DNA from: Prorocentrum cordatum
Taxonomy: Eukaryota
DNA length: 54,647 nt
Direction: 5' to 3'
Assembly: GCA_963575745.1 (NCBI GenBank)
Contig: CAUYUJ010000222.1
Location: 62,001-116,647, forward strand
The translations under genes and the position numbers were made by a program. The notes under the pieces are model-generated. The model worked only from the letters and a program-made list of their open reading frames with translations. It was not told where the DNA came from and made no database searches. Positions 4,468-29,014 of the stretch are shown piece after piece. The number at the start of each line of letters is the position of its first letter. Position 1 is the first letter of the stretch.

Positions 4468-6149
4468 CACCTGAGGCAGGTTAAGCCGAACCTTCGCTCG
4501 AGCCACATTCGCGGACCGTTGTCGGCGATGGTGGCGTTTCTGCTGGACAACGGCTGGGACCTGCAGTCCGCCATCTGCTGGGCCATGCCGCCCACGGAGT
4601 CGGGCGAGGTCATCGAGTGGCAGTTCCCTGACACGGCGTGGACGGGCTTCGTGGATGTCGACGCGCCGAGAGAGCTTGTGAGCGATTTGAGTAGTTCTAT
4701 ATATCGTTGCGCAAGATTTACCAGCAGTTCTCCAACATCCCGCACGGCAACCGCATGGAGGAGGTGCTCAGCATGGTCGTCACGGGCGGCAGCTGGGCGA
4801 GAGATCGGCGAGTTGACGCAGCGGAGTCAAGGCGCTGGGTTTGTCACGCCTCTGCCCGAGGTGTGGGCAGGAGGCCGAGACCATGTTCCACCGGGGCTGG
4901 AGCTGCCCCAAGAACGTGGGACCACCAGCGTACGTTGGCTCGCAGGACTTGCTCCCGCAGGCCTACAGCAGGTACGACAGTGAGCAGTGCTACTGGTTGC
5001 GGGGGTTGCTGCCAGCCAGGTGGACCGAGGTGACATCACCGCAAGAGCGTGAAGAATGGCACGTGTCGGGCGCAGCGGCAGGTAGTCTCGAAGGTCTCCC
5101 GTTCGGGCACGGTACCGAGCAAAGGCCACTGTGGTTTTTTGCTGATGCCAGTGGCGGCGCCGACTCGGCCGACAACAGGTTCAGACGCGTGGGCCTGGCG
5201 GTCGTCAGCGTGAACAATTTCGAGCCCCTGGTTCTCGATGGGACGGTGTCGGGGGTCTTCCAGGGGCACGGCAAAGTGTTCCCAGGGGGGAGCTGTTCGC
5301 GCTGCTCATCGCCGTCAGGATGTCCAGCGGGTGCGTGCACTTCGTCACGGACAGCAGTGGAGTTGCAGACGGCTGGTACTCGCATAGGTGCGCCTCTCCC
5401 AGCGGCAAGGATGCCGATCAGTGGAACAAGATCGGAGTGGCTCTGGCTGGACGCAGTCAGGCTGAATTTGTTGTGTTGTTTGCGAATTCGCATTTGTCGC
5501 CGACACAAATGATTCCAGGAGCTGCGCCGTGGCAGTTGATTGTTGGCAACGCGGCGGTTGACGAAATGGCGGAAGGTGCGGCACGTCGAGTCAGGCTTGC
5601 CGAGACCGAGAGACATCGTGAACACAGGTTCGAGAAAAAGGTGTGTCAGATAAGTTTGAGACTGATCAGAACTACACTTGATGCTCGGGGGTCCGAGGGC
5701 GAACTGGTGCAAAAGACAGACCGCTGAGAAAAAAAACGAAGTGTGTGAACCATCGCCTCCCCCTGCCGCTTCTGTGTGCATGCAATTTGCCACCAGCCAC
5801 GTTCTTGATGACTGGCCAGCGTTGTAAGAATTAATTTAGCTCTTCTTCCCAGGCTGACAAGGCCCAATGTATTCCTCTCAAAATGTTAGACCCGCTGCTG
5901 TTGATGGTAGGTTCCGTGTGTTGCCGTCGGGGGTTTAATTACATGCAGGGGGGGCTGGGTACACAGTACCTACATAATGCTTCTGCACCAATCCTTGAGG
6001 CTCTGGATTCGCTCACAGTGCGGGCATAGGAGACTGGGTCGCTGAATATTAAAATCGGATCGAATCCGATCGATGGCCGCAAAGCCGATATGTTCGCTCG
6101 TAAGCGCTCGCAGTTCGCTTCGGCTCGCACCTCGAATGTTCTCACTCAC
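4468..6149 (+). mobile_element. 5'-truncated, frameshifted LINE: post-RT region, zf-RVT-like finger, RNase H, C-terminal Cys motif, (TCC)n tail
   Basis: Spread across frames: RGPLSAMVAFLLDNGW; CPRCGQEAETMFHRGWSC; RNase H motifs FADASGG, QSVPRGEL, FVTDS, NSH, GNAAVDEMA. Collinear with the 16895-18600 element; (CCT)n on both sides. Confidence 0.9.
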
Positions 6150-6224
6150 TCCTCCTCCTCCTCCTCCTCATCCTCCTCCTCATCTTTCTCCTCCTCCTCC
6201 AACGCCTGGCGGCCACCCAGGATT

Positions 6225-7114: not shown

Positions 7115-7269
7115 TGAATGATCGATCGACCACGGAATTGATGTACCCTGGAATTGAACATTTGCCCCTTCGGGACAAGTACTTGTTTCGGAGGGGCAAA
7201 AATGCTTGCCCCGGAGAAGCAAATTCTCAATTCCAGGGTCAATCATTGGCAAGGTCGATCGATCGTTCA
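7115..7269. mobile_element. 155-bp MITE, ~7-bp TSD
   Basis: TGAATGATCGATCGACC...GGTCGATCGATCGTTCA; inner IR ACCCTGGAATTGA/TCAATTCCAGGGT; flanks CTCTAGC/CTCTACC. Confidence 0.7.
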
Positions 7270-7413
7270 CTCTACCAGGCATCCTCTACAGGGGCATTGT
7301 TGCGTCTTTTTTGAGCCTCCGAGGAGGACGACGAAAGGCAGGCTGTGCAGTAACGGGCTCCGAGAGAGTCGCGGACGCCACAGCGCGCGCACGGGAGCTG
7401 CCAGGCAGCCGAC

Positions 7414-7528
7414 TTGGTGGGGAGTTGAAAAGTCCCCCCCCCCCTCTGGAGCGAACATGTGCCCTGAAGGAGCAACTCGGGGGCGAATGTTTGCTCTTAG
7501 GGGGGGCACACGTTCAACTCCCAGCCAA
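7414..7528. mobile_element. Small fold-back/MITE-like element
   Basis: GGGAGTTGAA...TTCAACTCCC with inner GAGCGAACAT/ATGTTTGCTC inverted pair; no TSD found. Confidence 0.5.
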
Positions 7529-7810
7529 ATCTATCGAAGGGGCCCCGAGAGACACAATGACAACTGAATCAATTTGAGGAAATCCCGTATTTTCTTGTAT
7601 GTTCTGGATTTCCTCTCCCACTCGTTTCCAGGATGTCCTGAATGTTCGTGTATGTTCTACGTTTGTTCCCGACCATCCTGTCGTGTTGGGTCCTCGTTTT
7701 GACGAGACAGCGCCCCGCGTCTCACCTCACATCACCTCCCGCTGGCCCCTCCCTCCTCCCACTCCTCCCTCCTCCCATTCCTACTTCTGCTCGCCGCGTG
7801 TCCACCATGT

Positions 7811-16055: not shown

Positions 16056-16894
16056 GTTCCCATGATTAACGCCCCAGAAACGCTTTTGTGGAACGAAACA
16101 AGAATGTCAGGTAGCAGCAGTTTTGTTGATTCGCGGTGTTGAAGTCCCAGGACTGGCGGTCTGGAGCGATTCAGGGTCGTCGAGACGCAACACTCAGGTT
16201 GATCCGCGGCGTCGAAATTCAGAGAATGGCCTTGTGGCACGTTCCAGCATTTTCAGACGGTTGTTTGCCAATGAGGCAATTCACTCAGTGGAATTGTATC
16301 CTCGTATGGGCCTATGAAGAGGGAGCTTGGAAGGAAGGTTTACTCCAACATCGTTGGTGAACCTTGGGTTTGCACTGGTCCCGCTCCTCGTCCTCGTCCT
16401 CCTCTTCTGTCTCCTCGAATTCCTCACCCTCTCCTTCTATTGTTCCTTCTCCGTTTCCTCCTCCTCCTCCTCCTTTTCCTCCTCTACCTCTTCTACCTCC
16501 TCTACGTATTCCTCCTCCTCCTCCAATTCTTTCTCCTCCTCCTCCTCCTCCTCCTCCTCCTCCTCCTCCTCCTCCTCCTCCTCCTCCTCCTCCTGACAAA
16601 CACCACAAGTTCCACGTACAAGAGCAGACTGGCGTGACAGAGCCAGCGGCAGGGCACCCTCGTTTCCGGTGGGCCCCGCCCCCCGGGCCTGCTGGTCCTC
16701 GGACTCCACCAGAGGCACGTGGCGGCGGGTGTTGTCGGAGTCCCTGGCGTAGCAGGGAGGAGGAGGAGGAGGAGGAGGAGGAGGAGGAGGAGGAGGAGGA
16801 GGAGAAGGAGGAGGAGGAGGAGGAGGAGGATTGGGAACATTGGGGTAAAATGACAACGTAGGTCAAAACAGTGCCCAGAAAACAAGTGCAGAAC

Positions 16895-18330
16895 TTACAA
16901 TATCAAGAGGGGCCCAAAGCCTCCCGCACCGCTTTGGGGGGGCCTCCTGGGTGAGGGGTATTCGCCTCGCTCGATGCGGGCCAGGTTCTGTCTGCCCTTG
17001 GCCGAGGGTTCACATCGAGGGGCAAGCTGCCGTGCATCCGTCGTGCACGTCTTCCCGCATTGGGTGCAGAAGATAAGCATGAATTTCCGCCAGAAATGGA
17101 GCCGATGGGTTTCGTGGAAGGCTTTCCCCCCCACGACCCGCGGGCCCGAATAGGGCGAGAACTCCTGAGTTCCACCGCCCCTGCAGGGAGATTCACAAAC
17201 CTGGAAAATCGAGTCCTGGTTGGCAAGCAAATCGCACCTCCTGCACCAAAACTTCGGGCCCGCACGGGCCCACACGTGAGGCGAGTCCCGAAGCGAGCGA
17301 GCGAGCCTCGGGAGCGCAGCCTCGCCTCTGCTGGTGGGCTGCCATTCCGCGGTCCATGGATCCGCGAGGATGCAACACGCAAGGGCTCTCCGCGCACGAC
17401 GACGGATCAGCGAGGCCATGGCATCCCGCTCATCAGTGCACGGCACAGGGGAAACTACATACTGAGACCAGGCGCTCTCGGCCATGAATCCAGCCAACGA
17501 CCCTGCTGATTCATTACCAAACATACGAAAAATCTGCTGCACAGTCGGGACAGACACCTGATCGAGCTCTACATGAGAGGGCGCCCAGACTATATCGATC
17601 ACACCAGGTCCTCGGGAGGCGACAGCCTTCAGGATATCGGACCAGAGATCAGCGTTCGAACCCAACACCCAGCTCGACACTCCAACACGCTGAATTCTGC
17701 TCCAAGTATCCACCAGAGGCCTGTGATCGGTGACAAAGCGCAGATTACTAGAAGACACAGTGAGCGCCATGAGAAACGCCAGGAGCTCCGCGCGAGGCAC
17801 AGACTGCCTTCTGCCCTCGAGAGTGGGCCCACGTCCCGCGGAGGGCTCCCAAGACGATCCGACTGGAGTGAGGCCCATGACCCCCGCCCCGACTCTGCGA
17901 CGCCGAGGGTCGCTCGAGAAACGACCCCCCGACCCATCGCCGAAGATCGTCACGAAACCTTCGGCGTCGCGGGGAATCAGGTCGAAAGATCCAAAATCTA
18001 CAACCGTAGGGGGGAGAGGAGCGAAGGAGGGCACGGTCTCACTCACTCCAGGCACTCCTCGAAGCCAAAATCCTGGATATGCCTCATGCTGCGCTTGTGC
18101 CTCAGCATGCAAATGCTGGGAATCATCGAAATCCTCATGCTGGGTGTTAGCGGAGCATTCCCACACTCTGTGGAACAGGGACTCAGGTTTCTCATGGCAC
18201 CGAGGACACAAGCTGGGTACCACGTAGCCTGCATCCCTCAGCCTCTGGCGAGGCCATTGGCCTCCACTCACCACCACGAGGTTGAGCGCCACCTGGCCCT
18301 CGCCGTTGACATGAGCGAGCCGATCAACTT
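16895..18330 (-). pseudogene. LINE ORF2 C-terminal part: zf-RVT-like CCHC finger, RNase H, two Cys clusters
   Basis: CPRCHEKPESLFHRVWEC; IFGDGSGG, QSVPRAEL, FVTDH, WAPSHV, GNESAGSLA (last catalytic Asp appears replaced by Gly); FWCRRC, FHETHRL, IFCTQCG. Confidence 0.9.
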
Positions 18331-18399
18331 CACGATGAATGTGCATCATATGCACCTCTGGCCAAGTCTTCGCCCGCTTCATGATGTCCAGCGGCAGCC

Positions 18400-19994
18400 C
18401 ACAGCAGAGAATCCACCGTGGCTTCCACATCTTCCAGCAGGTCCGTGAAGTCGGGGCTGAAGTCAGAGAAGGCCTCATCATCGCACGACGGGATGGCCCA
18501 AACATGAAGCTCAGACTCCCAACTCGTGGGACTGTGCGGAATCCAACCAAGATCCATGAGCGTGGCAATCGTAGCACCGATAGGGCCCAAGACGACCCTC
18601 CACCGTCGAGTACCTGCCAAACGCAACCGAGATAAAATCTTGCCCCAACTTAGAGCAATCCGAGCATGAAGATCAGGATGCTCTCGCCGCAACTTTAGCC
18701 AAGCCGCCAAATGTTCACGACGAATGACCTTAGCAGGGCCACGCCTCCCAAGGGCTGCTGCAATAGAAGACGTGAGACAACGACCAGGACCAGAGCCAAC
18801 CGCACTCTGAGCCGCCTGTCGCCTCAACTGCACCAAGAGATGACGAGGGATATCATACGCTTGATGAGCATAAGTCCCCTGCGGCTTCGCCCCAGTAGGC
18901 CACAGCGCACTGGTGACCTTGCGGGGCCTGGCATGCTTGCGCATACGACGAATAACCGTGGCCCGCGACTTGGCTCTCTTGACACGATCCAACGCTTTGT
19001 GTCGGGAGTAGTACCTGCCAGCAGAAGCATCCATCCCCAGATCCACAGCATGCCGAACTGCAGCGACTGGGACTCCCGCACGCCGATGCCCATTGCTGAC
19101 CTTGAGGGACAGGGAACCTGACGAGGAGATCACCGCAGTCGCGGGGCGAACTGTCAGCCCAGCAGCACCGAAATCGCTGCGCAACCCACACCCAGACTCC
19201 ACCAAAAGGTCGCCAGCAAGACTCTCTGGGCCTTCAACCCTCAGCACGGTGTCGTCCACAAAGGTGCGCAGCATGATTCGGCCTTCGAAGCGCTGCTGGG
19301 CTTGCTGAAGAATTGGCCCTAAGAAGGCCTTCGCAAGTCGCCCACCATTCAATGAGCCAGCGACAACACTGCGTCGCGGCAAGATCTGCTTGCTAATAGA
19401 GTTCTGGTCCTTCAGGTGGCGAGGAGCCATGAAATTCTGAATCTCAAGAGCCAGAACTTGAAGAGGAAACCCTTGCTGCAAGGCTGAGACACATAATAAT
19501 GAGAAAGGCAAGCTGCCGTAGAACTTCTCCAGATCCAAAAGAAGCGTCGACAAGGCGACCCCCATCTCGCGGCAACTCTCATCCATGCGCGAGCGGGCCA
19601 GCGCAGCCTGCAGCGCCGACGAACCCCGAACAGCAGTGTCCCAATGCTCCTCCAGGGCTTCGCTCCAATTTAGCGCGCGCTGGCTTCGCAAGCGGGCCCG
19701 CAACCGTGCAAAGTGAGGCAGCAACCCCAAGATGCGATCCCCTCCTCTGGGTTTCGGTAGAATAGGAGCAATGACAATGAATATTTGCTGCGGCCACAGA
19801 CAACGAGCTTCAACAGCATGGAGTAATCCGATCAGTTCAGCTTTGGCTGGCCCTGGCAGTCGCTGCAACTCGATGGGCCCCAGGGAACCCACTCCCTTGG
19901 CTTTCTTAGCGTTGGGGCGCGACAGAACAGCCTCCAAAGCCTCAGGGGTGGTGTCCTCCAGCGGACCAGACCGAGCCCTGCTTCTCAAGTACAT
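18400..19994 (-). pseudogene. LINE reverse transcriptase domain
   Basis: ILPKPRGGDRILGL, LLLDLEKFYGSL, RSVVAGS, RTFVDD (19251-19262), DLGMD. Confidence 0.93.
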
Positions 19995-20999
19995 GAAACC
20001 TGCCCGAACTTTGTTGAGATCAGCTTTGGGATCACTCCAGATGTCACTTCATTCATCAGCCCGCAAGTCCATCATGCTGTTGGGCGTGGCGTAGATATCA
20101 TTGCCTCGTATGGGCTCCGCAAGCTTGACCTTCTGGTCTCCCTTCGCATGGCGGTGTAACACTCCAGGGGAAGACTTCCACACTTTCAATACCCACGCCC
20201 TCTGCGAGCCTTGGCGAGCGCTTGGCCGAGAGCTCTAGATCGATATTTGTCGGCGGCCTCCATGAGCGCCTGGAGCTCATCGCCGTCGGCATCGGCGATG
20301 CTAGAAACAGCGCCAAACCATCCAGCCCAATCGCAATTGGGACCCTTGTCAAAAGGATAATCAACGCCAGAAGCGGCCTCAGCAACTCGCCAAGCTTACC
20401 CGCGCACAAATCCAACTCTTGATCCTTCCCAGCTCTATGGAGCAGCACATACCTGCGGATAAGCGCAGTACGAAGCTCCCACCATTCCAGGTGCTGGTCA
20501 CGAAGATGTGCACGCCCAGGAGTCGATCGCGACCGAGACCAACTAAAATCGCATCCACCCGCTCTCCCACAAAACTTCGCACGATCTTCTTCCGAAACGT
20601 CGTGGTGCAGCATCGTGGCGTTCCCAACAGCTTGAATCCACTCACCATACACAATAGAGAGCGTATCACGAGTCTCAGGGTCAGCATCCGGCACAGTATG
20701 AGGACGCTGCGCGGGCCGCCCTTCGCAAGGCTGGGCGCGAACTTCACGCCAAAGGTCCAACGGGATGGCGAACGGCGTCGAGTCGATGGGGCGACCCTCC
20801 CCCTCAGGGTACAGCTCGTCGAAAGCATCTTGAAGGACTTCGGGTAGCTGCTCACGTCGCTTATGTTTAGTCTCGCTAATCTTCCTCTGACTCTTACTAT
20901 CGGGGTCTGGCTGCCGACGAGGTCTGGAGACAGTGTGCAACGGCTTGGGGATCGACAGCGTGCGAATCCACCAACTGACCTTACCCGCCTTCAATGACA

Positions 21000-21680
21000 T
21001 GGAGCGACCTGCATGCGTCTTCCATGGAACGTGCGGCACGATGTTAACACGAAGCGCATCAGCAACTTTGGTGGACGCGATCACGTAGTCAATCAGGGTG
21101 CCAGAACCTCTGTTGCACGTGACGTGCCCGTCGATGGGTAACTTCAGCTGTCCACCGAGCTTCGCAATCCAATCTGCGGTGTCCCATTCAGCAGGGGTAA
21201 CATTCCAGTCGCCAACAAGAATCCAAGGATCTCTGATCAATTCCAGAAACCCAGCCAAACGTACTAAGGTCTTCTCACTATCGCCTCTCAACTTGTGACC
21301 AGGGAGAAGGCAACACGCCACCACAACAATATTGCCAGCTCTAGTGTGCCAAAAACCAGGACAAAAGCCTCGAAAGGGGTCTTCGACTCTGGAGGTAACG
21401 CCAGCTGTGCGCCAATGCTCGAAGCTGGTAAGAGAAGTCGTCTTACGAGTAACCAACCATTCTCCTCCAGAGGTGCCATGCGCCGATCTGCCTGTAAGGA
21501 CAGAGGGAGTAGCAAGAACTCTCCATCCATCTTTACTCATATCCGCAACAGCACGAGATAACCGGTCGCCCCTCATATGCGTCTCAACTATGCCCAGGAT
21601 ATCATATTCCTCGGCCTGACCACGAAAGAAACCTTGGGTTACAGGGCCCCACTCAGAGACGTTCGCGAAGAAAATCTTAC
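21000..21680 (-). pseudogene. LINE apurinic/apyrimidinic (APE/EEP-fold) endonuclease domain
   Basis: IFFANV, ILGIVETH, TSGG, WILVGDWNV, TC..GTLIDYVI, PWKTH catalytic motif series. Confidence 0.92.
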
Positions 21681-21883
21681 TGTCCGTCTTGATGGTGTGC
21701 TCATAAGTCTCCGCCGCTGTCGAAATCGGCGAGGTAGAGGTACCATCTACCATACTATTCCCCAGAGCTGCCACAGCCGTAGTGCATGATGTGGGGTTTC
21801 CCAGGGATGAGGCACCCTGGGCGGCCGAGGACGTACAGGTCGTACTGGTACTGGTAGTGCGTCCATGCCAGGTCGGCTGCCGA

Positions 21884-22345
21884 TCAGGAACGAGACCTCG
21901 CAGAAGCGGCTCCACTAGAAGCAGCAGGCCGAGGACCGAGGCCAGCAGTAGCCTTGCTCTCGACCTTGACCCTCGCCTGGGCCAACGCAGACTTGACCTG
22001 CTCTTTGACTGCCGCCTCCTCCACGGTGGGCTCGGACAGGTCATCGGTCGGTGAGGGGGGGGCGGCGGTTGGCGCGGCAGTATCCTCGGCGCCAGCCTCC
22101 GCCCCAGTCCCAACGGCAGCGGCACCCTCTTCGTCGAGCCTGGAGCGCTTGGACGGCGAAGCCCTGATCTCCTTGGCCCTCGCCGCCGCCTCCTGGACCG
22201 TCGCCTGCAACTTGGCAACCTCCTCAACCTTGGCCTTGATGTCGACCTCAATCTTTGCGAGCTGCGCCTTCGCCTCGCCGTCAATGTCCGATAAGTCCGT
22301 GAAAAGGGACTCGTCGTAGGCGAAGAGAATGCGCTTGCCGTCGGG
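21884..22345 (-). pseudogene. LINE ORF1 C-terminal coiled-coil/low-complexity part
   Basis: DGKRILFAYDESLFTDLSDIDGEAKAQLAKIEVDIKAKVEEVAKLQATVQEAAARAK...RSRS-stop, just upstream of the APE domain in another frame. Confidence 0.65.
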
Positions 22346-24274: not shown

Positions 24275-24427
24275 CCCCATCGCCATCATCTTCATCAGCA
24301 GCAACAGCACCATCATCAGCAGCAGCATCATCACCAGCGCAATCACCAAATTCACATTCATCATCATCAGCATCATCATCACCAACATCATCATCACCAT
24401 CATCATCCCCATCCCCATCCCCATCAC

Positions 24428-24471
<44 letters not shown>

Positions 24472-24673
24472 GCATCGTCATCGCAGTCATCATCATCATC
24501 GTCAGAATCGTCGCCGCCGCCGTCGCCGTCTTCGTCACATCACCGCCACCGTCATCACCATCAACAACGACAGCAACACAACATCATGGATCACCGACAT
24601 CACCATCACCATCACGAGCAGCCTCGTCGTCATCACCATTACAATTATTATCACCATTACTTTCACCACCACC

Positions 24674-24707
<34 letters not shown>

Positions 24708-24834
24708 GCCGTAGCACCAGCATCAGCCCCACCATCACCATCACCATCACCATCATCACCATCATCATCAACATCATTAGTATCGTCACCACCATCACCA
24801 TCACCATCACCATCACCATCACCATCACCATCAC

Positions 24835-24896
<62 letters not shown>

Positions 24897-24905
24897 GCAT
24901 CATCA

Positions 24906-24938
<33 letters not shown>

Positions 24939-24960
24939 TCGTGATCGGCATCATCATCCT
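24275..24960 (+). repeat. (CAT)n/(CACCAT)n microsatellite
   Basis: Directly visible. Confidence 0.95.
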
Positions 24961-25010
24961 CAGCATGACTATTCCCATCGCCGCTACCATCGTAATCATC
25001 CGCGCCAGCA

Positions 25011-25693
25011 TCGGCACACCCCTCGCACGTTTCGTGGCCCCATCTGGGGGCCTCACCAAAGGTCCCAACGGCGCCACCCGCATGCGTCCGACCCACCCAG
25101 CTCGGCATACCCCTCACGAGGACCGTGGCCCCAGAGGGAGCTTCACCGAAGGTCCCAACGGCGCCGCCCGAATGCGTCCGAACCATGGGTTTTCGGCACA
25201 CCCCTCACGAGGATCGTGGCCCCATAAGGAGCTCCACCGAAAGTTCCAGAGGCGTCACCCGCGTGCGTCCGACCCACCAATTCGGCACACCCCTCACAAG
25301 GATCGTGTCCCATATGGAACCGCACCGAAGGTCCCAAGGGCGACGCCCGCATGCGTCCTACCCACTCATGTCGGCATACCCCTCACACGCTTCGCGGTCC
25401 CATAGGGAACTCCACCGAACGTCCCTGCGGCCGTCCTCGCGCGCGCCTCCTCCGCTCATTTCGGCAAGCCCCTCGCACGCGTCGTGGCTTCACGAGGAGT
25501 TCAACCGAAGGTCGCAGCGGCCGTCATCGCGCGCGCCCCCCCTACAACCCGCATGCGGTACCCGCCACATGTTGGTACACCCCTCACGCGGCTCGCCCGT
25601 CTCACGCGGCTCGCGGCCCCATAGAGAATTCACCCCCAGATCGTCCCGCCTGCCCTGCGGTACTCACAGTTGCGTATGGTTGGGTCCTTCGCC
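25011..25693 (+). repeat. Diverged second array (~7 units) of the 90-bp minisatellite plus shared 3' tail
   Basis: CACACCCCTCACGAGGATCGTGGCCCCATA core; tail GCGGTACTCACAGTTGCGTATGGTTGGGTCCTTCGCC matches 9123-9159. Confidence 0.85.
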
Positions 25694-25944: not shown

Positions 25945-26867
25945 ACTCCTCCTCCTGCTCGTTCTCCTCCTGCTCCTGCTCATGCTCCTCTTCCTCCTCC
26001 TCCTCTTCTCCTCTTCCTCCTCCGCATCCTCTTCCTCCTCCTCCTCCTCCTCCGTCCCCTCATCCTCCTCCTCCTCATCCTCCTCCTCCTCATCATCATT
26101 ATCTTCACCTTCTTCTTACTATCATTAGTAGTGGTGTCCGCGTTGTTGGTATTGTTAGTCTCGTTATTATCGTTATTTAAAGCAGTACAATACTTACTAT
26201 CATTATTATTATGATGATCATCATACTATCACTATCAACATTCGTAGTATTGTTAGTAGCGTTATGCTTATGATGATTAATATTCGTAGTATTATCGATA
26301 CGAGTATGAGTGTTAGTGATGTTCGTATTGCTTTTCTTGTTCGTATCATGATTAGTTTGATTGCTCTGCTTCTACCTCATCATAGTCCAGTTCCTCTTCC
26401 TCCTCCTCCTCCTCCTCTTCCTCCCCCCTCCCCCTTCCCTCCCCCACCACCTCCTCCTCCTCCTGTTCCTCCTCCTCCTCCTTCTCTCCCTCCTCCTCCG
26501 TCTCCTCCTGTTCCTCCTCCTCCGCCTCCTCCTCCTCGTCCTCCTCCTCCTCCTTCTCCTCATGCCTCCCGCCTCCTACTTCCTCCACCATCCTCCGCTT
26601 CCTCCTTCTCAACCTCCTCCTCCTTCTCCTCATCCTCGTCTGCTTCCTCCTTCTCGTCCGCCTCGTTCTCCTCGTCCTCCGCCTCCTCCCCCTCTTCCTC
26701 CTCCTTGTTGTCCTCCTCCTCCTCCTACCCCCCACTCTCCCTCCCCCCTCTCCCCCTCCTCCTCCTCGCTCCTCCTCCTCCTCCTCCTCCTCCTTTCCTC
26801 CTGTCCTCCTCGCCTCCTCCTCCTCCTCCTCCTCCTCCTCCTCCCTTCCTTCTCCTCCTCCTCCTCC
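25945..26867 (+). repeat. (CCT)n tract with an AT-rich (ATT/AGT) interruption
   Basis: Directly visible. Confidence 0.9.
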
Positions 26868-26889
26868 TCCGTAGCCATGTTGGCTCGAG
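26868..26889 (+). other. Genomic relic of the dinoflagellate spliced leader
   Basis: TCCGTAGCCATGTTGGCTCGAG versus canonical DCCGTAGCCATTTTGGCTCAAG (20/22). Not followed by a GT donor, so not an SL RNA gene. Confidence 0.9.
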
Positions 26890-28100
26890 ATGCATGCACA
26901 ATTGAGGCTCTGCGCCTCTGTGCCTGACTGGATACCGCTGTCACCGCGGCAGGTAAGGCCTCCTGTCTCTCGTGTTATGGCCTTGCGCGCGGGCGGTCCC
27001 TGGCGCAGCGGCCGCGGCCAGGGCAGTTGAGCATGGCAGCCCGACTCCAAGCAGCAGGGCAAAAAGAAGAAGAAAGCGAAGGACATCTCCTACGTGGTTT
27101 GCAATCTGTGTAAACACTGCGAGTATGTACGTCACGGCCATTGCGCTTGCAATATGTGGCGTGGCGCTTACGTTTCGGATGGTCGGGTGCTGGTCAACCT
27201 CCTGGCGCTGATGCTTGGGATCGAATTTGCGGAGTGGCTCATGGTGCTGCTGCTGTGCCTATGCCTCCCCACCTTCTTCAAGAGCTGGAGCGTTGGTCTG
27301 TTCAGTATCCTGCCCTCGCTGGCGTTGCACGCGACGCTGCAGCACCGCTCGCGCCAGAGGTTTGTGAGTACACTGAAGGGGAATCGGATCGATTGGCAGC
27401 GCTGGAGCAAACGGAGCTCGCCAAACTCGTTGAGGACGCCACGACCGCCTCGCTTATCAGGAGGTGCAGTGGCGGCTCGACCGCTACAACAAGGCGAAGA
27501 TCGCCATGGAGGAGATGCAGAAACGAAAAAACATCGAGGCAGAGCATAATCTCGAGGTGGCTCGCATGGCGACGCGCGAGGCGGATGCTCAGAAGAACGC
27601 CCTCGATGTTGCCGCGATCAAGCAGACGACGCGCGCGGAGGCGGACGACCGGCGCGGCCAGCGGGAGCAGGCCGCTGCAGACCAGAGGTGCCGTGCAAGC
27701 TGGTGCAGGTGATGGTTGGCTCTTCTTTGAGGTACGCCTGCAAGCGCGCGCTGCTGCGATAGGCGTGATCTATCTCATCCCTAGCATCGGCGCGTCTGAA
27801 GAAATGCGTCTCGGCTTCGCGCGGTTGCTGAGTTTGTCCGTGGGCTGTCGGTCCCATGGTTCCTGGTGTCAATGTTGGCTGATTTCCTGGGAGATGCTGG
27901 TGTCTTGGAGCTTCTGCCTGCTCGCGTCCTGGCCCGCAATGACGCGGACCTTACTTGTGCGACGGGTGAAACGATGATCGATGACGTGCTGTGTTCTCGT
28001 CGCCTGTTCCCGTACCATCGAGTGTCTGCCGACCTCCGATCCCCATTCAAGGCCCGCGCGCGCTTGAACGACATCCCCCTGGATTTGGAGGCCCTGGTGA
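26868..28100 (+). mobile_element. 5' part of a degenerate, internally deleted LINE: SL, ORF1 (Zn finger, coiled coil), C-terminal half of APE endonuclease
   Basis: ATG at 26977: MALRAGGPWRSGRGQGS*AWQPDSKQQGKKKKKAKDISYVVCNLCKHCEYVRHGHCACNM. Coiled coil at 27464-27690. Then IGVIYLIPSIG..NASRLRAVAEFVRGLSVPWFL..LTCATGETMIDDVLCS..SPFK, which aligns by eye with the APE domain at 21000-21360. Confidence 0.7.
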
Positions 28101-29014
28101 CGAGGTCGTCTACACGCAAAACGTCGAGATTTCCAGCGTGCGCCTGGCCCTGGTCGCGGCCGCTCGGTGCAAGTGGAAGCTCCAAGCTCTAGAGGTGAGC
28201 ACGGCATTTCTCAATGCCCATCTTCCTCCTGAGGATGGTCACATCGTCGTTCGTCCTCCCAAGCTCTTCGTCGATTTGGGCTTCGTAGGGCCAGACGTGC
28301 TATGGGTTGCAAACGAGGGGATCTATGGGCTGCGGATTGCCCCCAGCGCTAGGGGTGCCAAGCGCGACAGCGACATGAGGGCCAGGCAATTCTTGGTCGA
28401 CGGCGTGCCCGCGAAGCTGGTCCGGAGCAGGTGCGACCCCGGTGTCTGGATGGTGGTTGCTGCGGCGGAGCCGAAGCTGGAGTCGGACCGCTTGCTGCTC
28501 GGTCTTCTTCTCGTCTACGTTGACGACTTCCTTTGCTTGGGTCCTTGCGGAGTTTTGGGCGAGCTGGAGTCGCTGTTGAAGGCAACCTGTACGCGCTCGG
28601 TCCAGAGCCGGATCGGCTGGGGAGAGCCAGGGAAGATGCCCTACCTGGGGTTGGAGAGCCGATCGTGCACCGGGCCCCTATCTGAACTACATGCTCGCCA
28701 AGTGGGCTCTGGGTGGCGCCAGCGGCGCGCGCGCCATCGCGCTCGAGCCAGTTCCGCGCCCTCGCGCGCCAGAGGATGGCGACGCTGATCCAGCAGCCGC
28801 CCGCGCGGCCCAGCGGATGGCAGGAGGATTACCGTGGCTTGCTGCGAGGCCGCGCCCTGACGTGTATCTCGCGACTTCGCGTCTCAGCAGCTCTGCCTGC
28901 AGCCATCCCGAATGGGCGCCGCGGCTGGGCAAGCGGCTTCTGCGGTGCTCCATCGGCGCTCGTGGCTCTGCCCCGGTGATCGGCCGGGGCCTCGACGACC
29001 CCAGCGCAGGGCTA

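Follow-up and report, generated by a model that had tools for sequence, protein, structure and literature searches.

Results

A spliced-leader-headed copy in a TCC microsatellite

This study analyzed a window of 54,647 nucleotides (nt) from the dinoflagellate Prorocentrum cordatum (contig CAUYUJ010000222.1, positions 62,001 to 116,647), in which the spliced leader (SL) of dinoflagellates, present as a DNA copy, stands between an imperfect (TCC)n microsatellite and a decayed coding sequence. The segment from 26868 to approximately 28085 is probably the 5' part, now dead, of a retrocopied messenger RNA of a Prorocentrum-type long interspersed nuclear element (LINE), inserted into (TCC)n. The RNA that was reverse transcribed was a full-length, trans-spliced message starting with the SL, because the copy starts with the SL, 87 nt before a conserved ATG and directly against (TCC)n. 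A first-pass annotation of this DNA had proposed that the copied RNA had been trans-spliced, and the proposal held, since the copy begins with the SL and is not an SL RNA gene.

The sequence at 26868-26889 (+), TCCGTAGCCATGTTGGCTCGAG, agreed with the 22-nt SL, in the canonical form printed in a passage of PMC7245778, at 20 of 22 positions; the mismatches were G for T at 26879 and G for A at 26887. A search of the 54,647 bases with an SL 21-mer, allowing at most three mismatches, returned one match (26869-26889, two mismatches), and the same search returned none in 100 shuffled sequences. The SL copy was followed by ATGCATGC and not by a GTA... intron start, whereas all 27 SL RNA genes found in environmental DNA continued from the SL into GTA... 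and carried a ...GCCTTTT motif. Because ATGCATGC stands where those 27 genes have GTA..., and with neither a GT intron nor a GCCTTTT-type motif downstream, the identity of 26868-26889 as an SL RNA gene was ruled out. A search of Rfam revealed nothing relevant, its single weak match (GABA3, E 0.6) being below threshold and at chance level. The sequence, the mapped tandem repeat, and the uniqueness of the match thus confirm the earlier description of a 20/22 SL copy directly behind (TCC)n.

The 87-nt leader that had been described between the SL and the start codon was likewise recovered, at 26890-26976. No second or relic SL was detected in it, the best local alignment score being 10, a value reached in 83% of 2000 shuffles. 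With one SL per approximately 109 kb of two-strand sequence, simple arithmetic places the probability of an SL within 100 nt of the ATG at 26977 at approximately 1 in 1000.

Two side observations concern the SL and its leader. The leader contains CAGGTAAG at 26950-26957, a textbook 5' splice-donor string located 20 nt before the start codon. An SL variant with G at leader position 12, CCATGTTGG, as in the window at 26879, occurred in environmental DNA (L071/L091 and L096) and accounted for 3 of 139 among the environmental matches listed, two of the three deriving from one sequence; an earlier report of this variant, for one Polarella transcript, is quoted in a passage of PMC7245778. The second change in the window (CTCGAG) appeared in none of the environmental matches listed.

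The junction with the repeat recurs

Tandem Repeats Finder (TRF) delimited the microsatellite at 26392-26870 (period 3, 160 copies, 73% matches; 479 nt). The tract joins the SL without a gap and in register, and its last TCC unit is indistinguishable from SL bases 1-3. The recurrence of this junction was read from the contigs and unitigs of one low-depth DNA run, X1. Two unitigs, spanning 26852-26883 and 26854-26886, had word depths of 49.1 and 95.8, and both ran from TCC repeat through most of the SL, in the register of the window, with one letter different and no gaps. Because these junction unitigs were 49.1 and 95.8 deep and the element body (27414-27672) only 2.1, the join from repeat to leader recurs tens of times in the genome sampled by X1. 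A third unitig (depth 4.5) led from the SL into sequence unlike that of the window.

The first-pass annotation had further suggested that the first bases of the SL match the target repeat and could supply microhomology for the 5' junction. The link to the repeat has been strengthened, both by the junction depth in X1 and by the (TCC)n tail of a neighbouring LINE described below; the microhomology role of the three shared bases is putative. As a separate observation, the window holds, at 24284-24966 and 25011-25537 and between TCC tracts, a long (TCA)n/15-mer array (CATCATCAGCATCAT) and approximately 4-5 copies of a 90-91-nt tandem repeat.

The copied message belongs to a multi-copy family

An exhaustive HMMER search with the 287-residue frame at 27114-27974 retrieved five representatives (E 2e-18 to 5e-14, 59-70% identity), and a follow-up search added P0013 and P0014. 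The resulting seven distinct database proteins, encoded on different contigs, are all unnamed proteins of Prorocentrum cordatum, indicating a multi-copy family; their identity to the window copy was 51-72% over most blocks and 41-46% at the N-terminus. In tblastn comparisons, residues 1-80 of P0008 (42.5%) and 1-74 of P0013 (40.5%) aligned from the ATG at 26977 to approximately 27180, and residues 2-27 of P0011 aligned to the same N-terminal block (46%). Because the P0008 and P0013 alignments begin there, the ATG at 26977 is the genuine, conserved start codon of the family. It opens a frame with a Lys-rich stretch, KKKKKAK, followed by the Cys-rich VVCNLCKHCEYVRHGHCAC and a worn CxxC...CxxC zinc-ribbon-like motif at 27097-27174, and the earlier description of a Lys-rich, Cys-rich first open reading frame (ORF) was therefore accurate. 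A coiled coil had also been described; the charged, alanine-rich block at 27437-27688 matches relatives at 51-59% and is coiled-coil-like in appearance.

The frame is broken in several places. An in-frame TGA at 27028-27030 replaces a codon for W in the relatives, frameshifts lie near 27185-27192 and near 27437-27443, and approximately 150 residues of P0014 are missing from the window copy after the third conserved block. With one in-frame stop, two frameshifts, and a missing internal block, the window copy is, judged by its reading frame, dead. The family hence has the dispersed, multi-copy character and the decayed copies of a LINE family: seven proteins on different contigs and a broken copy in the window. 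A search for relatives in environmental contigs gave 596 pattern matches, none of which was confirmed.

Homology to LINE proteins

The window contains a comparator, a 5'-truncated LINE of another family at 16831-22345 (-), with an apurinic/apyrimidinic-type endonuclease (APE). Its database relatives P0005-P0007 share a layout of a CxxC...CGKCG zinc ribbon, a Lys/Gly-rich stretch, a coiled-coil-like region, and then the endonuclease; P0006 is 46% identical to the LINE of the window. The N-terminal part of this verified LINE protein was matched twice and collinearly: residues 4-81 of P0010 aligned with P0006 130-210 (E 2e-6, composition-adjusted), and residues 47-70 of P0013 aligned with the zinc ribbon at P0006 6-31 (E 0.021).

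The endonuclease evidence is borderline. The translation of 27803-28063 contains PWFLV..LADF, TCATGE-TMIDD, and SPFKARA, which follow the pattern PW.LV..LAD, TC..G..ID, P.K in the right order. A blastp comparison with the APE of the neighbouring LINE gave 27% identity over 104 residues (E 0.001-0.004 in databases of 2-5 sequences). For hhalign, the result was E 9e-4 with a probability of 22%. When a hidden Markov model (HMM) was built from four APE sequences, this piece was the top non-self match among the 910 ORFs of the window (E 0.016). The first-pass annotation had claimed an APE fragment resembling the LINE at 16831-22345. Of that claim, a weak, borderline resemblance of 27803-28063 to an endonuclease survives; no DNA or protein similarity to that LINE rose above ordinary thresholds. 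Candidate GGE and FFSN endonuclease motifs, picked out by eye in 27681-27857, were dropped because hhalign gave no support in that segment. Elsewhere in the window, the ORF at 7142-7564 (+) gave a weak match to the LINE-endonuclease HMM (E 0.036-0.079 among 910 ORFs) and may be a worn LINE piece.

The LINE copy stops at approximately 28085, against an internal piece of a Ty1/copia reverse transcriptase (RT). Because no RT was found and the APE is borderline, we classify the element as probably a 5' piece of a LINE, short of verified membership. The features discussed are collected in Table 1.

Table 1. Positions of the features in the 54,647-nt window
Position	Strand	Feature	Evidence
26392..26867	+	Imperfect (TCC)n microsatellite, directly upstream of the SL	TRF and sequence
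26868..26889	+	SL copy, 5' end of the retrocopy	Sole window match; 0/100 shuffles
26890..26976	+	87-nt leader (5' untranslated region)	Between the SL copy and the ATG at 26977
26977..27183	+	N-terminal coding block with the start codon of the family, a Lys-rich run, and a zinc-ribbon-like motif	tblastn with P0008, P0013, P0011
27192..27443	+	Conserved block VPMPPHLLQELERWSVQYPAL...DRLAALEQTELAK, second frame	68-72% identity to P0008/P0013; phmmer E 2e-18 to 5e-14, 5 representatives
27437..27688	+	Charged, alanine-rich, coiled-coil-like block, third frame	P0011 110-157 at 59%; P0014 38-122 at 51%
27803..28063	+	Degenerate piece, probably the C-terminal third of an APE-type endonuclease	blastp, hhalign, HMM
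28111..28371	+	Internal piece of Ty1/copia RT, outside the LINE	Pfam RVT_2 E 3.3e-7; covering profile positions 55-136 of 244; 30.6 bits, below the cut-off of 31.6
16831..22345	-	Comparator LINE of another family, 5'-truncated; APE, RT-like, and RNase H-like ORFs	Pfam Exo_endo_phos E 1.9e-6; relatives P0005-P0007
16756..16841	-	3' end of the comparator LINE: AATGTTCCCAA, then approximately 24 TCC units on the sense strand	Sequence, tract map, motif search
6135..6205	+	Second remnant of the comparator family, 3' end: AATGTTCTCACTCAC, then (TCC)n tail	blastn 88% over 66 nt; motif search

A neighbouring LINE family carries a (TCC)n tail

No SL was found at the comparator LINE. Because that element is 5'-truncated and without an SL, it cannot test the SL claim either way, and its value lies at the opposite end. 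A map of the TCC/GGA tracts of the window revealed 29 TCC-type and 3 GGA-type tracts on the + strand, and the tract that closes the comparator LINE is one of the 3. Since GGA-type tracts are this rare against TCC-type tracts, the element brought this tract with it, and local background does not explain it. A second copy of the same family, with RNase H-like remnants at 4773-5571 (+) (tblastn), ends in the same manner, and the 3'-end motif AATGTTCYC before the (TCC)n tail occurred at two sites in the window, with none expected. Both LINE 3' ends of the window (2/2), each from the comparator family, therefore bear (TCC)n on the sense strand.

Some leaders abut simple repeats in environmental DNA

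When environmental contigs were scanned for the SL, at least 126 loci with at least 133 distinct occurrences were identified; among the occurrences listed, 27 were SL RNA genes, 4 lay at contig ends, and 102 were embedded. A fixed rule for abutment on a simple repeat of period 1-5 was applied to the 101 embedded SLs with at least 22 nt upstream. The results revealed abutment in 12 of these 101 listed SLs, compared with 121 of 17,863 positions drawn at random from these loci (0.68%; binomial p 6e-12), and in none of the 27 SL RNA genes listed. The repeat units at these junctions included CAT, CT, GT, CA, AT, and GGGT.

Two loci, L066 and L070, contain SL-headed units of approximately 3.2-3.4 kb with same-strand (CA)n on both sides and AAAAA before the 3' repeat; L066, which has 19 nt upstream, was added by eye and stands outside the 101. 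These are the (CA)n cases with long downstream sequence, and the repeat is present on both sides in 2 of 2. In L070, an ORF of 801-806 residues begins immediately behind the SL; Pfam gave no match for it. The layout of both loci is the signature left when a polyadenylated RNA that bears the leader enters a microsatellite by target-primed insertion.

The scan also returned material of a different kind. Several AT-rich contigs, up to 118 kb long, carry multiple DNA-encoded perfect SLs (L002/L003, L017, L018, L043, L045-L047, L053, L061-L063, L065, L069, L101, L110); similar AT-rich stretches of the form ...TTTTTA stand before these SLs, and the gene behind the SL differs each time. The ORFs behind them include DNA polymerase beta-type domains (L047), a RecQ helicase (L061), an FtsJ methyltransferase (L017), and DUF4116 repeats (L043, L065). 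These contigs resemble genomes of large DNA viruses, or of an AT-rich host, in which the host leader is written immediately before the genes. In the GC-rich L075, an SL at 6001-6021 (-) is accompanied, 3.8 kb downstream on the same strand, by an ORF at 250-2238 with a Capsid_NCLDV domain (E 5e-17), and the locus may represent a viral insertion in a dinoflagellate genome.

Evidence against a LINE origin and alternative explanations

Several results weigh against the interpretation of the copy as a LINE inserted by way of its repeat. With respect to the endonuclease, the HMM match of 27803-28063 fell to E 1.1 when the LINE of the window was left out of the model; Pfam gave nothing at E<=1 for this piece, a phmmer search of the PDB gave no match, and a word-indexed homologue search scored 0 of 2843 candidates. 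Its atlas neighbours carry endonuclease families, all with scores below 0.9. For 27681-27857, the upstream half of the supposed endonuclease, hhalign revealed nothing (E 0.29), and a comparison of the family profile with the LINE profile was equally empty (E 0.75). All seven database relatives are short models (63-345 residues) without an endonuclease, RT, or Pfam match. Downstream, 109 ORFs at 27.9-40.3 kb yielded the copia piece and no other RT, tblastn with the LINE proteins found nothing, and the rest of a LINE was not found past the copia piece; the 3' part of the copy, two-thirds of the element, has been lost together with its own 3' end, any target-site duplication, and the 3' flank.

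The evidence for the junction has corresponding limits. An in-register join would arise by chance in 1 of 3 single copies, and the high-depth X1 unitigs stop inside the SL and could head retrogenes, not LINEs. The (TCC)n tail was seen for the comparator family, which is not the SL-headed one. In the environmental contigs, relatives of these LINE proteins were found in 0 of 50 SL loci with at least 900 nt downstream, and an RT domain in 0 of 74 ORFs downstream of the SLs.

An alternative source is a retrogene. The message of a multi-copy cellular gene encoding a zinc ribbon and a coiled coil would have been trans-spliced, then reverse transcribed in trans and placed into (TCC)n, and the piece that resembles an endonuclease would be unrelated debris or chance. 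The short, domain-free relatives, the borderline APE, and those environmental SL copies in microsatellites that lead into ORFs other than those of transposable elements all favor such an origin. We nevertheless consider it unlikely. The two collinear matches tie the family to the N-terminal part of the APE-bearing LINE protein P0006, and the top non-self APE match of the window sits exactly downstream on the same strand. Furthermore, the C-terminal VPWFEVRALR of P0014 resembles, by eye, GWLFFEVRLQAR at approximately 27700-27735, just before the APE-like piece, although this lies in the region where hhalign detected nothing.

An origin from a LINE message leaves a question about the leader itself, which might have been inherited and not renewed: an ancestor would have captured the SL once and since then been copied, with the SL as an ordinary 5' untranslated region, from transcripts starting at or upstream of it. 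The presence of the SL would therefore say little about the expression of present-day copies. Two changes in 22 bases and the age of the copy are compatible with such a history, but the SL meets the flanking repeat exactly, which is where it should lie if the RNA started with it, and the 87-nt leader contains no array of relics. The X1 unitigs are one letter off the window in the SL region, and that letter is unlisted, so the canonical form is not readable from them. On balance, an inherited leader seems rather improbable. A chance SL-like string, or a remnant of an SL RNA gene beside transposon debris, can be dismissed as very improbable even in this patchwork of repeats and broken elements, given the absence of any match in 100 shuffles, the lack of the GT intron and downstream motif of the 27 environmental SL RNA genes, and the correct strand and distance of the SL relative to a conserved start codon.

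Discussion

A possible route of insertion

The reading that we prefer, a trans-spliced LINE message copied into (TCC)n, can be arranged into a sequence of events. Insertion would have occurred by target-primed reverse transcription into the (TCC)n/(GGA)n microsatellite, with the sense strand of the element on the TCC strand. In this genome a LINE can have a (UCC)n 3' tail, and such a tail could anneal to the (GGA)n strand once this is nicked. At the opposite junction, the cDNA terminates in GGA (the complement of the leader UCC), which could anneal to the top strand at its TCC end and thereby set the register. The in-register join of the window, and the one found at high depth elsewhere in the genome, would follow from such pairing.

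A copy inserted in this manner would bring no upstream promoter and, as the first-pass annotation had proposed for a LINE lacking an internal promoter, might depend on outside (read-through) transcription and a fresh leader for its next cycle. Two sequencing runs presumed to be RNA gave no coverage of this stretch. The pyrimidine tract, together with an internal or terminal AG of the old leader, looks like a usable splice acceptor; the missing relic behind the SL could be accounted for if splicing used the terminal AG or if the copy descended from a master copy. After insertion, the copy would have decayed by a stop, frameshifts, and deletions, and everything beyond the endonuclease would have been lost to a rearrangement that left the copia RT fragment adjacent.

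We extend this scheme to dinoflagellates in general only as a speculative proposal, one that we regard as more doubtful than not. Dinoflagellate LINEs may tie their cycle to the host at both ends, trans-splicing supplying a 5' UCC... and a (UCC)n tail the 3' end. Both ends would match (TCC)n/(GGA)n, into which the elements would go with a single orientation and with the register kept. With each insertion the repeat would lengthen, leaving a pyrimidine tract and an AG for the next round of splicing, and the same machinery acting in trans would make SL-tagged retrogenes (>20% of genes in some species), with the microsatellite target differing by lineage.

Implications

Dinoflagellate genomes are full of SL-tagged gene copies, and the source of the RT that made them is at issue. 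According to a passage of the review PMC6050394, the type of element that mediates retroposition in dinoflagellates is unknown, and copia elements are favored. Target-primed insertion of the LINE type, as opposed to copia, is indicated by a probable LINE that is leader-tagged, by leader-tagged copies that sit in microsatellites and end in a short 3' A run, and by LINE tails of the same repeat. The leader and the microsatellite together form a concrete junction signature that can be counted in any assembly, and insertions of this kind suggest one source for the very long TCC-type tracts of this genome. New in this study are the recurrence of the (TCC)n-SL junction in X1, the (TCC)n tail of the other LINE family, and the excess of microsatellites at environmental SLs.

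Comparison with known systems

Retrocopies that carry relics of the dinoflagellate SL (DinoSL), referred to as recycled cDNAs or retrogenes, are described in passages of PMC7245778, PMC12014239, and PMC6050394. Like them, the copy reported here derives from a trans-spliced mRNA and has the SL, encoded in DNA and outside any SL RNA gene, at its 5' boundary. It differs in that the published cases are host genes, whereas the message here was probably the retrotransposon's own, and in that no truncated relic stands behind the SL. Slamovits and Keeling (2008) are cited in those passages. In the parts of PMC7245778, PMC8045281, PMC12014239, PMC6050394, PMC3229502, PMC3942190, PMC10666404, and PMC11453091 that deal with DinoSL retrocopies, the accounts concern host genes, with no mention there of LINEs or of microsatellite junctions. 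A full-text literature search returned no statement of a dinoflagellate LINE that begins with the SL; supplementary repeat tables, which lay outside that search, may list these LINE families.

Trypanosomatid LINEs of the L1Tc/ingi group likewise inhabit a host that trans-splices its mRNAs. The abstracts of PMC1874656 and PMC8190864 describe an internal promoter, Pr77, in L1Tc and unspliced transcripts. The LINEs of trypanosomes thus avoid trans-splicing by means of an internal promoter, in contrast to the element described here, which was copied from a spliced transcript.

A physical link between retroelements without long terminal repeats (non-LTR elements) and SL sequence is also found in the CRE/SLACS/NeSL elements. 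CRE, SLACS, and CZAR target SL genes. SL exons are listed among targets, and NeSL is described, in passages of PMC4640811. Those elements insert at a fixed site in SL RNA genes by means of a restriction-like endonuclease, whereas the SL described here is complete and forms a splice-derived head, is followed by no SL RNA intron, and is flanked upstream by (TCC)n, and the endonuclease, if present, would be of the APE type. The contrast with this group drawn in the first-pass annotation is therefore sound.

A parallel for the target is provided by LINEs that insert into simple repeats. Kojima and Fujiwara, in 2004, reportedly recognized Waldo, Mino, Kibi, Koshi, and Dong of the R1 clade as microsatellite-targeting elements. 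Another non-LTR retrotransposon of this type is Togen, which is specific for (TG)n according to a passage of PMC4640811. Such elements insert into a simple repeat in a fixed orientation and have a tail of the same repeat unit; the (TCC)n tract on the 5' flank of the SL-headed copy and the tail of the neighbouring family may be counterparts of these features. No SL is involved in their insertion, whereas in Prorocentrum both ends of the RNA, the 5' UCC of the leader and a 3' (UCC)n tail, could match the putative target.

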